This document shows positions 30,001-36,000 of a stretch of 64,000 nucleotides of DNA, piece by piece (positions within the stretch are counted from its first letter, which is position 1; every line of letters begins with the position of its first letter). Made by a program: the position numbers. The stretch covers positions 1,376,001 through 1,440,000 of the forward strand of contig OY761614.1 of the NCBI GenBank assembly GCA_963664825.1. The letters are read 5' to 3'. Source of the DNA: an uncultured Holophaga sp. GTDB lineage: Bacteria; Acidobacteriota; Holophagae; Holophagales; Holophagaceae.

Positions 30001-33000
30001 CATCGGCCAGCTCACGGTTGTGTCTGGCCTTCTGGAGCAGATCTTCCTTGAAGGCCCGAAGCTCCCCCTGCCGCTGGTGAAGAGCAGGGAGGCCATCCGG
30101 CGCAAACAAGAGGATGCCCGTAGAGACCAGTGCAGAAATGACCAGGGCACCCCAAAGAGTGCGCGAACGAAGAAGCCAGGCGGCGTTCACGGCCTCAGCG
30201 GAGGAGCGGACCGAAGGCCTCGGAGCCGGCGTAGCGGGCGGCGGCCCCCAGCTCCCATTCGATCTGGAGCAGACGGTTGTACTTGGCGACCCGATCCGTG
30301 CGACAGGGGGCCCCGGTCTTGATCTGCCCGGCCCCGGTGGCCACGGCCAGATCTGCGATGAAGGTGTCCTCGGTCTCGCCGCTGCGGTGGCTGATGATGG
30401 CGCGATAGCCCGCCTTATGGGCCATATCCACGGCCCTCAGCGTCTCGGTAACGGTGCCGATCTGGTTGAGTTTGATGAGGATCGCGTTGGAAACGCCTTC
30501 CCGGATGCCCTTGTCGAGAATCTCGGGGTTGGTGACGAAGAGATCGTCGCCCACCAGCTGAATCTTGCCACCCAACTTGGTGGTGAGGGTTTTCCAATTC
30601 TTCCAGTCGCTCTCATCACAACCATCCTCGATGGTGAGGATGGGATGGCGATCCACGAGGCCTGCGTAGTAATCGATGAGTTCCTTGCCGCCGCGCTTGG
30701 CACCGTCGATCTCGTATTTGCCATCCTTATAGAACTCACTGGAAGCGCAATCGAGACCGAGATAGAAATCCTTGCCGGGCTTGAATCCGGCCTTCTTGAT
30801 GGCTTCCTCGATGAGCTCGAGGGCCTCCTCGTTGCTACCGAGATTCGGTGCGAAGCCGCCCTCGTCGCCCACGCCGGTGGAGAGTTTCTTGGCCTTCAAC
30901 ACACCCTTGAGGGCATGGTAGACCTCGGCGCCCCACCGGATGCACTCGGTGAAGGAGGGCGCCCCCACGGGCAGGATCATGAACTCCTGGATGTCCACGT
31001 TGTTATCGGCGTGGGCCCCGCCATTGAGGATATTCATCATCGGCACGGGCAGCAGGCGAGCCGAAGCGCCTCCCAGATACCGGTAGAGGGGCTGCCCCAG
31101 AGCCTTGGCGGCCACATCGGCCAGGGCCATGGAGACGCCCAGTATCGCATTGGCCCCCAGGTCGGATTTATTCTCGGTGCCATCCAGGCTGACCATGAGC
31201 TCGTCGAGCTCGGCCTGCTGGAAGGGATCCATCCCCTGGAGGGCGTCATGGATTTCCGTGTTGATCGCGAGAACGGCGCCCAGCACACCCTTGCCGAGAT
31301 AGCGTTTCTTGTCGCCATCCCGTTTTTCCAGAGCCTCCCGGCTGCCGGTGCTGGCCCCGGAGGGAACCAGGGCCTGCCCGAAGGTGCCGTCATCCAGGTA
31401 GACCCTGGCCAGCACCGTGGGATTGCCACGACTATCGAGGACTTCGAGGGCTGAGACGCGTTCGATCAGCTTCATTTCAGGATTTCCAGGACACCCGCCA
31501 CAGGGCGGATCAGTGAAAAGAACCTTCCTATTTCTTAACAGCCTTCTTGGCCACAGGCTTCTTGGCGACGGCCTTCTTCACAACCTTCTTGGCCACAGGC
31601 TTCTTGGCAACGGCCTTCTTCACGACCTTCTTGGCCACGGGCTTCTTGGCGACAGCCTTCTTCACAACCTTCTTGGCCACAGGCTTCTTGGCAACGGCCT
31701 TCTTCACGACCTTCTTGGCCACGGGCTTCTTGGCGACAGCCTTCTTCACGACCTTCTTGGCCACGGGCTTCTTGGCGACGGCCTTCTTCATGACCTTCTT
31801 GGCCACGGGCTTCTTGGCGACGGCCTTTTTCACGACCTTCTTAGCCACAGGCTTCTTGGCGACGGCCTTCTTGGCCACAGGCTTCTTCGCGGCGACCTTC
31901 TTCACTACCTTCTTGGCGGCAGCTTTCTTCGCCACGGGCTTCTTCGCGACTGGCTTTTTGGCGACAACTTTCTTGGCCACAGGCTTCTTCACAGCTGGCT
32001 TCTTGGCAGCCGCCTTCTTAACAGCCGGCTTCTTCGCTGTGGCGTTCTTCACAGACTCGGCGGGCGTTTCGGGGACGACGGCGTTGGTCTCCTGTTCCAT
32101 TGGGAACTCCTTTTTGCCCTTCCGGGCGGGGTGGGGTGAAGAGGTTGATGGAGAAAGTAGAACGGTGGGCTTGCTCGGTGATCGCTTCCCGATGCTGGGT
32201 GCGTCGGTCTTGCGTGCAGACTTGGAGGAGGCATCGGCTTCCATCGTCGCCGCGGCGGCCTCTTGGGTCTTGGCTTTGACCTTTGGGGATTTTTTGGTGG
32301 GTTCGATGCCCGCGAGAATCTGGGCGAGCCGTTTGCCTGGATAGAACTCGTCCAGGAAGACATCGCTGATGATCACGCCATGGACACCCATGGCCTCGAG
32401 CTGGCGGATCTGCTCCAGGTTGGAAACGCTGGCCTCGACCATTCGGAAACACTGCTGTTCCGGGACCAGCTTGAGAAGCGCCAGGGCCTTTTCGAAGGAA
32501 GGCTCCCAGGTATCCATGTTGCGGCCCACGACGCAGACGATCTCGGCCTCGGCTTCCAGGGCTCGCTGGAGATCGGCTTCACAGAACACCTCGACGACCA
32601 CATCGAGAGCCTTGGCGGCAGCCAAGCGCTGGAGGGCCCGGAGGCGCTCGGGCTCAAGCAGGGCCGCCACGAGATAGATGGCATCGGCGCCGAGGATCTT
32701 GCTCTCTTCGATCTGGTACTCCTCGAAGATGAAGTCCCGGCGCAGGAGCGGCACCTTTACCTGCCCGCGCACCTCGGGAAGGTGCTTGTCCTCGCCGGAA
32801 TAGAGGAAGCGATCCGTGGCCACCGAAACCGCACGAGCGCCATTCTCCACGAGGCTCTTCGCATGAGTGGCCGGCCGGTAACTCGCACGCACCTGCCCCC
32901 GCAGCGGATTGCCCCCCGCCACCTCGGCAATCACGGAAATGCCCGGCTGGCTAAGCTCTTCCTTGAGAGAGTGGTGCCCCCGGTACGCGTCCTTAACTGC

Positions 33001-36000
33001 GGCGGGACCCTTTTGCTTCTTGATCTCGATGTCCAGCGCCTTGAATATCTGGACTTTTTTCAGCATTTACGCTCCCTCGGAGGCCCGTGATCGCGGGATC
33101 GATTGTTCTGTAGATCTCAAAAGATGATACGACGTCTGATGTTCAACTAAAGCAGCGTTCTCTTACAGGTCAACAAAATTTCGAGTTGCTCGAACAAAAT
33201 GTAATCCCCGGTTCCGCCTCGCTCAACCCTTTGCGTGTCGACCGAAGCGGAGGACACTACAGGGAGAACGCCCCGTGCATGTGCCGCACACTCCCGTTTC
33301 CACTCGATTTCGCACCATTCAACGCCCTTCGACAACCCCTCACCCCAAGGAGAAAACAGGATGGACGCGATCGTTCTGGATCATCCCCTCGCACACCACA
33401 AGCTCACGTTGGCGAGAGACCGGAAGACCAACGGGAGTCTCTTCCGGCAGCTGATGGAGGAACTCGGACTCCTCCTCGCGGTGGAATGCACGCGCGATCT
33501 GCCCACGGTCATGATCGTCGTGGAAACACCCATGGAACGCACCCAGGGCCGCTGTTTGAACCCTCTCGATCCGGTGCTCGTACCCGTGCTCCGTGCGGGC
33601 CTTGGACTCCTTCCCGCCTTCCTCCAGCTCCTCCCGACAGCAAAGGTCGGCCATCTGGGTCTCTACCGGGATCACGATTCCCTGGTCCCTGTCCCCTACT
33701 ACCGCAACTTCCCCCCTCTCCTGGAAGAGCGCCCCGTCTTCGTGCTGGACCCCATGCTCGCCACGGGTGGCAGCGCCTCCGAGGCCGTAAGGCAACTGAA
33801 GGCGGCAGGTGCCCGAAGCATCACACTGGCCTCCGTCCTGGCAGCACCTGAGGGCATCACGCGCCTGCAGGAGGATCACCCCGATCTTCGGATGGTCATC
33901 GGCGCGGTCGATCGCCAGCTGAATGAACGGGGCTACATCCTCCCCGGGCTGGGCGACGCTGGGGACCGCATCTTCGGCACCGCCTGACATGGACTGAAGG
34001 GAAGGACTAATCACCATCCAGTGGGTAGCCGATAGGAATCCAGAGGGTAGGCATGCAGACAGACGTCGAAGGGAAGGCCGCAAATCAATATCTGGCCCAA
34101 CGCATCCAGGGCGCGAGCCCGGAGCAGATTGTGGCCATGCTTCTGGAAGGGGGGCAGCGCTTCCTCAATCTAGCCCTCAAGGCCATGAAGGACCGCGATC
34201 TTCCGAACCAGGCCCGCTATGTGAACCGCGTCGCCGATATCCTCGTCGGCCTGAGTGAGCGGCTCAATCACGAAGAGGGTGGCGAACTGGTCGAGAACCT
34301 CGTCCGTATCTACGATTGGTGGACCAACGAACTCTTCGATGGCGCCATGAACAGCCAGCCGGATCGGCTCCAGAGGATTCTCAATCAGATGGGTGAGCTG
34401 CGAGGCACTTGGGAAGAACTGCATAGGCGTAAGACCCAAGGTGGACAGGTCTCGAATCCCACCAATTCCCTGGGCGAGCTGACGGTTTGAGCGATGAGGA
34501 AGTGAGGTCCGCCCTGGATTCCATGGAGCAGATGCTTCAGGGGGAACCCATGGATGCGGAGGCCATCGCGGCCTGGCGGCAGCGCTATGCCGCGGCCCTG
34601 GCTACTGCGGAAAAAGGGGAAGGGTGGTCCGAAACCACAGCCCGTGCCCGAGGTTTAGCGGAGCAACTCCACGCTGCCGTGAAAGTCCTTTCCCTTCGAA
34701 AAGCCGCGCTGCAAAAAGCGCAGGGCCTCCAGGCTCAGGGTGCCCGCGCCCTCAAGGGCTATCGACCCTATTGACCGCCCCCTAGATCAGCAAGGACTCG
34801 TTGGATCACGGATCCCCAGTCGCCGGGGCTGGGTTGACGGTAGATCTGCAGGTTCGGATACCAGGGGCTATCCTCCCGGTGGAGCATCCATCGGAAATCC
34901 GGTTGGAAGGGCAACAGGAGCAGGGTTGGAATGCCCAGGGCCCCAGCCAGATGGACCAGGACCGTGTCTACCGTGACCACCAGATCCATGCCGCTGAGGG
35001 CATAGGCGGTATCTGAAAAATTACTGAGCAGCGGAGCCAGGGAGGCCCAATTCCTCAAGGGTGGCTGCTCGGCCTGACCCAGTTGGAAACTGTGCCAATA
35101 AACGCCTGGAAGGCCGTCCAATGGACGGAGATCCTCCGGAGGAATGGATCGCTTGGCATCCCCTTTGTGATCGGGATTCCCCGCCCAGACCAACCCGACG
35201 CGAGCACCTCCATCAAAAGTTGCCAGGATTTCCTGGATGCTGTCCCGGTTCGGCACGCGCTCTGGCACATCCAGATAGGGCACGGCCCCAGGGATGCTCG
35301 CCAGGGTCGTCCGAAAGATCGCAGGCAGAGACATTAGGGACACCTGGAGATCGAAGGGCGGCAGTTCCGCGCCCTCTGGGATCACCCGATCCACCCCTGA
35401 GCAGGTGGCCACCAGATCCGCCAGTGGCGGCTGCACCATCAAGATGACCGTGCCCCCCAGAACCTTCACCAGGGGCAGGTACCGAATGAACATGAGCGTG
35501 TCCCCGAAGCCCTGTTCGAAGTGGACCAAGAGCGTTCGCCCTCGGAAGGGTTCGCCGTTCCAACGGGGCTCTGTGAAATTTCGTGGAGGCGTGATGCGAC
35601 CTGGCACCCTCAGCCGGGATTCGGACTGGATCCAGCCCTGGGGCATCTCTCCGAACATCAGCTGCATGTGGCTTCGCTCGTACTCAGCCTCGGGACCGGA
35701 GAACACATCCAACTGGCGCTCCATGTCCTTGCGGAGTTCGGTCCAATCACCCTGCCAGATGTAGATGTTGTTCAAGCGGCGCCGTGCCATTTCATGGGAA
35801 GGCTGACCTTCCAGGAGTCGCTCCAGGATGGCACGGGCGCCTCCCAGATCCTTCGTCTTGACCAGAACATCGGCCATCACCAGCTGGGCATCCACATTCC
35901 GGGGATCCCTGGCCAACACGCATCGACTCAGGAATCCGGCCTCGTCCACCCTCTCCAGCTGCAACAAGGCATGAGCCAGGTTCACCATCGCCGAAGAGTG

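Follow-up and report, generated by a model that had tools for sequence, protein, structure and literature searches.

Gene organization of the locus

The window analyzed here, a 64,000-nucleotide stretch of a contig from an uncultured Holophaga sp., contains a minus-strand gene whose product combines a barrel resembling the synthase of indole-3-glycerol phosphate (IGPS, TrpC) with a lysine-rich tail. A genome-wide survey's note had given this gene a product of 512 aa, and reading of the frame, on the minus strand, gave the same limits and length. The Pfam matches that it had listed were also reproduced, IGPS at residues 22-238 (E 4e-43) and HC2 at residues 337-467 (E 2e-19). The source genome is a single 3.47 Mb contig, 96.6% complete. 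Features of the locus are collected in Table 1. The N-terminus of the long product is conserved among orthologs, which carry GGAGG, GGGGG or GGAG variants where its probable Shine-Dalgarno (SD) sequence, GAGGGAG, is located. The gene heads a conserved row that continues with eno, ftsB and dapF; eno comes immediately after it in 38 of 42 loci, the other four reaching a contig end first, and an RNA-library contig spans the junction of the two genes. No published description of a barrel joined to a histone-like tail was found in the literature.

Table 1. Coordinates of genes and sequence features within the window
Feature	Position	Strand	Remarks
FtsB/DivIC-like septum protein	29882..30190	-	Next in conserved row
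Diaminopimelate epimerase (dapF)	29061..29864	-	Last gene of conserved row
Enolase (eno)	30195..31475	-	52 nt after stop of barrel-tail gene, same strand; Pfam
Full ORF, long product	31528..33066	-	512 aa: IGPS-like barrel, linker and Lys-rich tail
Nested frame, predicted short product	31528..32100	-	190 aa, 38% Lys, net charge +69, H1/Hc2-like
Repeat DNA coding KKPVAKK / KKAVAKK units	31541..32054	-	Core array 31542-31872, period 42 x 7.9 copies
Internal in-frame ATG, codon 323	32098..32100	-	6 nt after AAGGAG
Internal SD AAGGAG	32107..32112	-	Perfect complement to 16S 3' end; invariant in 36 distinct sequences
GCCC-GGAA-GGGC mini inverted repeat (A-R-K-G codons)	32116..32127	-	Just upstream of internal SD; conserved
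Disordered basic linker	32101..32301	-	Residues 256-322; pLDDT <50
Barrel domain	32302..33066	-	Residues 1-255; IGPS fold, remodelled active site
Likely SD of long product, GAGGGAG	33072..33078	-	5 nt before ATG 33066-33064; upstream sequence
Uracil phosphoribosyltransferase (upp)	33235..33987	+	Divergent upstream neighbor in most orthologous loci

Fold and active site of the barrel

The AF2 model of the barrel (pLDDT 91.6, pTM 0.90) is a (beta-alpha)8 barrel with the N-terminal helix of IGPS (EC 4.1.1.48, PF00218; PDB 6y88, 3t44 and 1igs), and Foldseek aligned it to 6y88 and 3t44 with TM values of 0.86-0.89. Its sequence is 29-39% identical to ordinary IGPS. Where that enzyme has Lys53, Lys110, Asn180 and Ser211 (Sulfolobus numbering), the barrel has Ala50, Arg110, Val180 and Ala212, and none of the 41 aligned orthologs retains any of the four residues: Lys53 gives way to Ala or Ser, Lys110 to Arg, His or Gln, Asn180 to Val, Leu or Thr, and Ser211 to Ala, Gly or Cys. 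Both catalytic lysines are intact in 142 of 142 nearest ordinary IGPS. Two IGPS signature sites that the survey's note had described as altered are indeed so (E-x-K reads E-V-A, and RKDF reads RRDF); the changes at Asn180 and Ser211 lie beyond those two sites. The equivalents of Glu51, Arg182 and Glu210 are retained in every aligned ortholog and that of Glu159 in 38 of 41; in the numbering of the barrel itself, Glu48, Arg182 and Glu211 are invariant. Gly234 of the phosphate loop is present in 40 of 41, and Cys178 is a new residue fixed across the family (39 of 41).

Lys53, Lys110, Glu159 and Asn180 of IGPS have been reported as essential (PMC7681013), and for the Mycobacterium tuberculosis enzyme Lys59Ala was reported inactive and Lys119Arg to have 0.00037 of kcat left (PMC10591298). 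All scores against NCBIfam TrpC equivalog models fell under their cut-offs, the best being 174 vs 260. These residues and scores argue that the barrel is probably not catalytic as an IGPS and that IGP would no longer be made by it.

A family-restricted paralog beside canonical TrpC

As a caveat, the survey's note had stated that many relatives combine a tryptophan pathway with no IGPS match other than this one. However, at least two IGPS matches were found in 43 of the 61 family genomes sampled, and in these 43 a canonical IGPS co-occurs with the barrel-tail gene. The extracted IGPS ORFs formed two cleanly separated groups when scored against this barrel (331-552 vs 39-95 bits). In a tree all the paralogs (40 of 40 tips) grouped as a single clade with support 1.0, its stem measuring 1.49 substitutions per site and its internal depth 0.355. 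The canonical copy of a genome of the same genus (G012) lies within a trpD-trpC-trpF-PALP row; the paralog, unlike IGPS, stands outside any trp row. Matches of at least 59% identity were confined to the window's own family among the 151 genomes of the class that were searched, and in a worldwide search identity dropped from at least 59% directly to at most 38-39%, with nothing between; in public records the family of the paralog is named Holophaga or Holophagaceae. By these measures the barrel-tail gene is, on sequence grounds, a separate family-restricted paralog and not the TrpC of the pathway.

The source genome has a single IGPS match, and its tryptophan pathway lacks TrpF, TrpA and TrpE as first described, with no PRAI, Trp_syntA or Chorismate_bind match. 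Because its sole Glycos_transf_3 protein also has PYNP_C, that protein is a pyrimidine-nucleoside phosphorylase, in line with the earlier reading, and the lone trpB was recovered as well, over its equivalog cut-off (562 vs 392 bits). The gene is retained in genomes without the pathway.

That the gene is nevertheless still the TrpC of the organism, an active enzyme making IGP to which a basic tail is incidental, is hardly credible. A Pfam IGPS score far over the cut-off, the IGPS fold, the retained glutamates and arginine and the IGPS name in public records all speak for it. Against it stand the replacement of the four positions in every ortholog, the description of equivalent single mutants of real IGPS as dead or nearly so (PMC10591298, PMC7681013), the second, canonical trpC of most relatives, the sub-threshold TrpC scores, and a genome that lacks TrpE, TrpF and TrpA, by which the substrate would be provided or consumed. 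The proposal that the protein has left tryptophan synthesis is thus well supported by its distinctness from the canonical trpC of most relatives, by the four replaced catalytic positions, and by retention of the gene where the pathway is absent.

Constraint on the barrel and its fusion to the tail

Median identity to the query over 32 loci reached 75% in the barrel, as against 82% in enolase. The barrel is therefore nearly as conserved as enolase; it is still under constraint and appears to be functional. Retention in small genomes, noted previously, was seen in four of four sampled genomes of 0.9-1.2 Mb, and the four apparent absences of the gene that were checked were all contig breaks inside the tail.

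Conservation so close to that of enolase, the invariant Glu48, Arg182 and Glu211, the nearly invariant Gly234 and newly fixed residues such as Cys178 would also fit an active enzyme of new chemistry, which would use a Glu48/Arg110/Glu211 triad with Glu159, be held at the nucleoid by the tail and act on DNA or a phosphorylated metabolite. Such an activity could just as well employ the retained Glu48, Arg182 and Glu211, together with the Glu159 present in 38 of 41. We nonetheless consider it unlikely. The residues now found at the former catalytic positions, small or hydrophobic, differ from one ortholog to the next (Arg/His/Gln, Val/Leu/Thr, Ala/Gly/Cys); the site looks like one of relaxed chemistry, not a new fixed catalytic set, and no candidate substrate or partner enzyme for the barrel was found in the conserved row. 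Judging from its residues, the barrel most probably serves to bind a ligand or has a structural role, and is not an IGP synthase.

The linker has 16 distinct lengths among 40 orthologs, every one of them in frame, and the 3046 linker codons in all contain no stop in their own frame, whereas the alternative frames have 33 and 66. The fusion of barrel and tail is accordingly a real one by its sequence record, with the long frame kept open. A strong SD and start of the nested frame, and the HC2 match that this frame gives alone, might instead be read as two genes, a barrel gene and an H1-like gene, joined by a missing stop, the long fusion having no function of its own. This is very improbable given that no ortholog has a stop, and the linker lengths and stop counts contradict it. 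Moreover, a near-length search (143-455 aa) brought up no barrel of about 260 aa free of the tail, five sister-family genomes had no stand-alone H1-like gene upstream of eno, and 19 sister-family genomes had no HC2 match over cut-off.

The lysine-rich tail

The repeats described for the tail are present in the DNA as a tandem array with 93% matches. When scanned alone, the nested frame scored 85.8 bits against Pfam HC2 (cut-off 40), a match to low-complexity sequence; both NCBIfam H1-like models scored under their cut-offs (39 vs 135 and 26.5 vs 80). The tail is the sole HC2 match in the genome, and HC2 matches in the class are essentially confined to the barrel-tail gene. Net charge of the tail ranges from +14 to +81 across 42 orthologs. 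Binding of the tail to the nucleoid is inferred from this composition and from the low-complexity HC2 match. In known proteins, tails of the H1-like type also bind polyphosphate granules and RNA.

The target of the tail might be another polyanion, either polyphosphate granules, like that of AlgP, or RNA and ribosomes, like that of the PhaF KPAA region, in which case the gene would organize granules or tune translation. The KPAA tail of AlgP was reported on polyphosphate granules and to be needed for their spacing (PMC9239181), the disordered KPAA region of PhaF was reported to bind mRNAs and activate translation (PMC12818456), and the present data do not tell polyanions apart. On the other hand, DNA binding has been reported for such tails (PMC9239181; DdbA, PMC3643593), the only H1-like sequence of a genome suits a general nucleoid role, and the conserved row holds no polyphosphate or PHA genes. 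We regard a target other than DNA as a serious possibility, but the less probable one.

A conserved internal start

An internal ribosome-binding site and start, which the survey's note had missed, lie within the frame just before the repeats. AAGGAG-N6-ATG/GTG occurs in frame there in 41 of 42 loci from 15 genera, which are kin and not independent samples. The 16S 3' end reads ...CACCTCCTTTCTA, a canonical anti-SD. The start is ATG in 39 orthologs and GTG in two, at constant spacing. The AAG-GAG codons of the SD are fixed; among invariant degenerate barrel columns, codons are fixed in 0 of 74 (Lys 0 of 8, Glu 0 of 7). The two spacer codons vary, and the start changes solely from ATG to GTG. 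Selection at the nucleotide level thus acts on the internal SD and start. Their conservation implies a second, 190-aa product, and suggests that the tail may also be made alone as a small histone-like protein. Because perfect internal SD+ATG sites are not rare in this GC-rich genome (9 with at least 300 open codons upstream), the case for the nested start rests on conservation. Folding of the inverted repeat upstream of the SD was not significant (z-score -0.78). The one ortholog without the site, from G026, belongs to a genus with weakly basic tails.

A single 512-aa product would fit the frame being open throughout and the perfect sites elsewhere in the genome; AAGGAG...ATG would then be kept for another purpose, such as encoding a peptide motif (K-G-x-K-E-x-x-M), pausing translation or forming an RNA element. 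RNA-library contigs cross the internal start unbroken, which fits one mRNA; a separate 5' end finds no support in these contigs, and they are blind to translation. In genomes of about 1 Mb, the nested product would measure only 29-33 aa. We think a single product improbable, since selection is seen on nucleotides and not on residues, with two freely varying spacer residues and an SD-start spacing constant at 6 nt. In addition, the structure model shows disorder in the motif region (pLDDT about 40), with no docking on the barrel.

Discussion

We favor, with a probability of roughly 60%, a family-restricted IGPS paralog that no longer carries out IGP synthesis and that permanently bears an in-frame, disordered polycationic H1/Hc2 tail and has two starts. 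Translation from the ATG at 33066 would give the 512-aa barrel-linker-tail protein, and translation from AAGGAG-N6-ATG at 32112-32098 would give a stand-alone 190-aa H1-like protein with the same C-terminus. Non-specific binding by the lysine repeats would be to a polyanion, and chromosomal DNA is the most likely one. The short form may then compact the nucleoid, and the long form may tether the barrel to the same polyanion. In that barrel the Glu-Arg-Glu triad, Arg182, the aromatic residues of the pocket and, for the most part, the glycines of the phosphate loop are kept, and both catalytic lysines are missing.

Beyond its residues and genomic setting, the protein departs from IGPS in its 257-aa disordered basic extension. 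The tail resembles chlamydial Hc2 (HctB) and H1-like proteins (PF07382) in its Lys/Ala/Pro/Val-rich tandem repeats, in its very high positive charge and in a repeat copy number that varies between close relatives, as is known for Hc2 (PMC2848022). In contrast to Hc2, the H1-like frame forms part of a longer ORF, nested after a barrel that derives from an enzyme; the resemblance is one of composition, with scores under the NCBIfam Hc2 cut-offs, and DNA binding by the tail is a prediction.

Fusion of a folded domain to an H1-like tail is of an already known kind, a point that the survey's note had missed. PhaF and AlgP of Pseudomonas, DdbA of Streptomyces and Ku with PAKKA repeats of Mycobacterium likewise join a folded module to a disordered polycationic tail, and KPAA-type regions have been reported as polyanion tethers of such modules (PMC9239181, PMC3643593, PMC12818456, PMC3553676). 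Unlike in those proteins, the folded module here is a catalytically remodelled TIM-barrel paralog, a type not reported among them, and the tail has its own conserved translation start. An SD-like sequence with an in-frame internal start conserved among orthologs is also found in Escherichia coli ArcB-C, a precedent for internal initiation, and in the IF2 isoforms; for ArcB-C, raised local synonymous-site conservation was reported and the C-terminal module was predicted as its own protein (10.1101/520783). Unlike ArcB-C and IF2, the module released here, a predicted isoform, would be a low-complexity histone-like protein and not a folded domain.

The survey's note was right to warn about trpC calls in this family: public sources label relatives of the paralog indole-3-glycerol phosphate synthase, and such names call for caution. 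What is added here is a conserved nested start, which suggests that an H1-like protein may be encoded within the same frame.

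A family-wide IGPS paralog separate from TrpC

The open reading frame lies where the genome-wide survey's note had placed it, with the length and the two Pfam domains claimed there, namely IGPS at residues 22-238 (PF00218, E 4e-43; 147.8 bits against a gathering score of 27) and HC2 at residues 337-467 (E 2e-19). The protein comprises an IGPS-like barrel (residues 1-255), a linker (256-322) and a Lys-rich tail. The genome, a single contig of 3.47 Mb rated 96.6% complete, has one IGPS match in a profile search, and the note's statements on TrpE, TrpF, TrpA, Glycos_transf_3 and TrpB were likewise upheld. 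A trp pathway context is absent: the profiles for CdRP supply and IGP consumers (Chorismate_bind, PRAI and Trp_syntA) have no match in the genome, identical searches found matches in all 14 control genomes, and the paralog's neighbours are eno (enolase), ftsB, dapF and upp. The sole Glycos_transf_3 match also carries PYNP_C and is therefore a pyrimidine-nucleoside phosphorylase. The lone TrpB-like gene is a stand-alone trpB that scores 562 bits against an equivalog cut-off of 392; the genome has no TrpA, TrpF or TrpE match, which suggests indole salvage rather than synthesis.

Positions of the features discussed (window coordinates unless a genome and contig are named; G000 is the genome of the window)
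Feature	Position (strand)	Remark
Paralog ORF	31528-33066 (-)	512 aa
Putative internal SD, AAGGAG	32112-32107 (-)	6 nt to the start
In-frame internal ATG	32100-32098 (-)	codon 323
Predicted nested frame	32100-31528 (-)	190 aa
Gap between tail stop and eno	31476-31527 (-)	52 nt; inverted repeat CCGCC-CTGT-GGCGG, no T-run after it
Opposite-strand ORF over the repeat array	31417-32139 (+)	240 aa
Opposite-strand ORF over the repeat array	31547-32344 (+)	265 aa
RNA-library match, internal start	31965-32213
RNA-library match, tail-eno junction	31000-31585
Stand-alone trpB	G000:C1:1749900-1751048 (+)	outside the window
Other Lys-rich ORF	G000:C1:1528463-1529422 (+)
Other Lys-rich ORF	G000:C1:1631883-1632857 (+)
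Other Lys-rich ORF	G000:C1:330348-331625 (+)
Other Lys-rich ORF	G000:C1:2723548-2723862 (+)
trpD-trpC-trpF-PALP row	G012:C1:505173-508883	locus L013
Interrupted paralog frame	G051:C1:122423-123200	draft
Interrupted paralog frame	G056:C11:26081-26817	draft
Interrupted paralog frame	G142:C249:8877-9584	draft

The same note had held that relatives with a Trp pathway carry a single IGPS match. This fails in our sample: 58 of 61 family genomes (the window's included) have an IGPS match, and 43 of the 61 have at least two. We fetched 40 further loci and scored all ORFs of 71 loci against the query barrel; the scores fell into two groups with a gap between them, 331-552 bits and 39-95 bits, which after removal of duplicates gave 42 paralog orthologs and 26 canonical TrpCs. 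A FastTree tree (midpoint root) was built from 40 distinct paralog barrels, the 26 family TrpCs and the 70 best representatives from outside the family, 136 sequences in all. All 40 paralog tips fall into one clade with support 1.0; its stem measures 1.49 substitutions per site, against a mean depth of 0.355 inside the clade. The sister of this clade is a group of five outside sequences and not the family's own TrpCs, a relation that is weak because the tree is midpoint-rooted. In G012, a complete genome of the same genus, the canonical trpC is flanked by a TrpD-type gene and a PRAI gene, the latter followed by a PALP gene, and the paralog lies elsewhere in the genome. The Trp pathway differs within the genus, G012 having this row. 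The paralog is the sole IGPS match in the window's genome and in G025, G035 and G045. Frames of 666-672 aa around the canonical trpC of relatives might be taken for fusions; the two that were scanned had no second Pfam domain and are simply open frames.

Among 151 genomes of the class, matches of at least 59% identity are confined to the window's own family, and two other families reach 26-32%. A strong match was found in 114 of the 127 family genomes of this sample. Five of the 13 misses were examined, and enolase was found in four of them; in each of those four the contig breaks off 172-350 bp upstream of eno, within a frame of AKK-type repeats, and these are assembly breaks at the repeats and not losses. 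At loci L110-L113 (genomes G102, G021, G114 and G140) the drafts break right in the Lys-repeat tail upstream of eno, and the gene is missed or truncated. Three other drafts have the paralog split over two frames or with a TGA, which could be sequencing error or real breakage. In a search of 5.8 billion proteins, the first 112 of the 120 matches listed are 59-97% identical and the next at most 38%; where they are named, these 112 are called Holophaga, Holophagaceae or Acidobacteria, with the exception of one partial MAG record labelled Firmicutes. An exhaustive HMMER search returned eight representatives at 62% identity or more, followed by 142 at 28-39%. An unfused barrel of about 260 aa was not found in a search of proteins of near length (143-455 aa). 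Public records list the protein variously as an indole-3-glycerol phosphate synthase, as a histone H1-like repetitive region-containing protein and as hypothetical.

An IGPS barrel with replaced catalytic residues

The AF2 model of the barrel (pLDDT 91.6, pTM 0.90) has the IGPS structures 6y88 and 3t44 as its top Foldseek matches (TM 0.86-0.89), and the fold, as modelled, is that of an intact IGPS barrel. Median identity over 32 loci was 75% for the barrel, close to the 82% of enolase at those loci. These results show that the paralog is conserved, is separate from the family TrpC and has the IGPS fold.

To compare catalytic sites, 41 usable orthologs were aligned with the 26 family TrpCs, the N-terminally broken ortholog of locus L068 being left out; sites are given in Sulfolobus numbering. 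The replacement of two signature lysines, which the survey's note had read in the query, extends to all 41 orthologs. In 41/41, the equivalent of Lys53 is Ala or Ser, that of Lys110 is Arg, His or Gln, that of Asn180 is Val, Leu or Thr, and that of Ser211, which we take to be a catalytic-site residue of IGPS, is Ala, Gly or Cys; the query has Ala50, Arg110, Val180 and Ala212 there. The equivalents of Glu51, Arg182 and Glu210 (query Glu48, Arg182 and Glu211) are retained in all 41, that of Glu159 in 38 and that of Gly233 in 40, the query having Ser at the last site. A pairwise alignment of the query with P. aeruginosa IGPS agrees with this pattern. The 142 nearest ordinary IGPS sequences all retain both lysines, and 141 of them retain the Asn and 141 the Ser. 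Two reports describe the catalytic Lys53, Lys110 and Asn180 as essential in IGPS (PMC7681013, PMC10591298); according to the latter, the M. tuberculosis enzyme has no detectable activity with Lys59Ala and keeps 0.00037 of its kcat with Lys119Arg. None of the 14 NCBIfam TrpC-type models reaches its cut-off on the query, the best of them scoring 174.3 bits where 260 are required. The alignment shows the loss from the paralog of residues needed for IGP synthesis.

A permanent in-frame fusion to a disordered polycation

All 42 orthologs end in a Lys/Ala/Pro(/Val) region of 92-281 residues with a net charge of +14 to +81. In the query, net charge is -4 for the barrel, +10 for the linker and +69 for the last 190 residues (38% Lys), and residues 260-512 are modelled with pLDDT below 50 and without secondary structure. 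The tail is encoded by a tandem array (period 42, 7.9 copies, 93% matches). Two opposite-strand ORFs run across this array, one of them reading LLGHRLLG..., and look like by-products of its composition and not genes.

Linkers of 16 different lengths occur among 40 orthologs, all of them in frame, and their 3046 codons contain no stop, compared with 33 and 66 stops in the other two frames. The long fusion frame itself is therefore under selection. These data show that the fusion of the paralog barrel to a disordered polycation is in frame and permanent.

Pfam HC2 scores 71.1 bits on the whole protein and 85.8 bits on the nested 190-aa frame alone (cut-off 40), a match to low-complexity repeats and hence weak evidence of common descent; the NCBIfam Hc2 and Burkholderia-type H1-like models fall short, at 39 against 135 bits and 26.5 against 80 bits. 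HC2 matches in the window's genome are confined to the paralog ORF. Four other ORFs of that genome have Lys-rich stretches and no HC2 match; most have their Lys mixed with Glu or Asp, and one, of 105 aa, ends in a short Lys run. Across 71 class genomes at least 90% complete, HC2 matched in the window's genome and, among the 51 further genomes of the family, in 37, for the most part where the paralog lies. In the two sister families of this set it matched 0 of 10 and 2 of 9 genomes, both matches weak and below the cut-off, so that none of the 19 has HC2 above it. No Lys-rich gene was found upstream of eno in five sister-family genomes, nor any unfused ancestor state in the sister-family genomes searched. 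In genus g13 (loci L042, L043 and L069) the tail is far less basic, net +14 to +35, with Pro/Asp/Glu-rich repeat units; the public record of one protein of this genus (G013) names Holophaga foetida.

A conserved putative Shine-Dalgarno sequence and start inside the frame

The linker has a single conserved island, ARKGKKE(F/P)PM, which is conserved at the nucleotide level. Of the 42 loci, 41 (15 of 16 genera) have an in-frame AAGGAG-N6-ATG at codon 292-331, with GTG as the start in two, and it is the lone such site in nearly every ortholog CDS. All 36 distinct sequences share an unchanged AAGGAG, and the two codons that separate it from the start are free to vary. For comparison, the barrel has 74 columns in which the amino acid is invariant and its codons are degenerate; over 41 DNAs none of these was codon-fixed (0/8 Lys, 0/7 Glu), in contrast to the fixed SD codons. 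The AF2 model does not render the motif region as structured or as a docked peptide. The one ortholog without the site (G026) belongs to a genus with weakly basic tails. Two genomes of genus g13 have GTG as the internal start, and another lacks this start.

The 16S rRNA of the organism ends ...CACCTCCTTTCTA; the anti-SD is canonical, and the pairing with AAGGAG is therefore perfect. Of the five starts in the gene row, the internal one has the strongest SD, in contrast to eno, ftsB and dapF, whose starts have no clear Shine-Dalgarno sequence. Chance was weighed as an alternative: the GC-rich genome has 210 AAGGAG-N5-8-ATG sites, nine of them with at least 300 open codons upstream, so that such sites are not rare and occurrence alone is no argument for an internal start. 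The pattern across orthologs shows selection at the nucleotide level on the putative internal SD and start. The site matches the features used for the experimentally verified internal start of ArcB-C (10.1101/520783): an AUG, GUG or UUG in frame within the ORF with an SD-like element 5-10 nt ahead of it, and conservation in orthologs together with elevated conservation of synonymous sites; both are found here. We infer that two products are probably made from one frame. In the genomes of about 1 Mb the predicted nested product has only 29-33 aa.

A sigma-70-type scan for an internal promoter gave no site in 31300-33400. A hairpin before the SD, GCCC-GNAA-GGGC, is conserved, but it folds no better than shuffled sequences (z -0.78; 42 of 200 as good), and since its stem is invariant, covariation is uninformative. 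No conserved block was seen in the ortholog alignment within 60 nt upstream of hairpin and SD.

Gene order and RNA-library contigs

In 38 of 42 loci eno lies directly downstream on the same strand, and the other four reach the contig end first. After eno come ftsB and dapF, and in most loci upp lies upstream in divergent orientation. The position of the paralog at the head of the eno row is conserved. Genus g4 (loci L052, L044 and L053; genomes of 0.9-1.2 Mb) retains, in this order, the paralog with its internal SD and ATG, eno and dapF; at E 1e-8 no ftsB was detected in the interval that separates the last two.

Metatranscriptome contigs of relatives (90-99% alike) extend over the barrel, over the internal start and over the junction of tail and eno. 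These matches are assembled contigs, silent on starts, strand, level and translation, and may include DNA carry-over. A separate 5' end for the short product was sought in them; they bridge the internal start unbroken and show no 5' ends. They are compatible with one long transcript.

Discussion

Proteins in which a folded domain carries an H1-like tail are already known, as are in-frame internal starts. What is new here is that the folded module is a catalytically remodelled TrpC barrel and that it comes with a predicted nested histone-like product. Our literature search found no description of an IGPS-like barrel with an H1-like tail, and no work that treats H1-like proteins of Holophaga, Geothrix or Acidobacteria. 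DNA binding has been reported for the tails of AlgP and PhaF (PMC9239181) and for DdbA (PMC3643593), and by analogy the lysine repeats may bind DNA. PMC9239181 and PMC12818456 also associate tails of this class with polyphosphate granules and with mRNA, respectively, so that the target may be another polyanion. The barrel is probably a ligand-binding or structural module, but may have a new activity.

Throughout the family, the paralog is a clear example of a core biosynthetic enzyme fold put to use in a non-metabolic, probably chromatin-related protein. It is also a recurrent false "trpC" call, by which a genome like this one is credited with a Trp-pathway step beyond its ability, and because its repeats break assemblies at the gene, it is under-counted in draft genomes. 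The conserved nested start is a testable case of one frame giving a histone-like protein both alone and tethered to a folded module, and it bears on the origin, fusion and regulation of bacterial H1-like proteins. The paralog is apparently the only H1-like source of these bacteria and is kept even in genomes of about 1 Mb, which suggests a housekeeping role.

A bolder reading, to which we give roughly one chance in ten, is that the one gene encodes a bacterial "linker histone" as its short form and a metabolite-gated counterpart as its long form. The short form would be a plain polycationic nucleoid compactor. In the long form, the barrel would have lost catalysis and yet bind a phosphorylated aromatic ligand, with Arg182 (which is retained), the aromatic pocket and the phosphate loops making the contacts, and ligand occupancy would alter the engagement of its tail with DNA or its competition with the short form. 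If this metabolite-gated reading is true, chromosome compaction would be coupled to metabolic state across a whole bacterial family.
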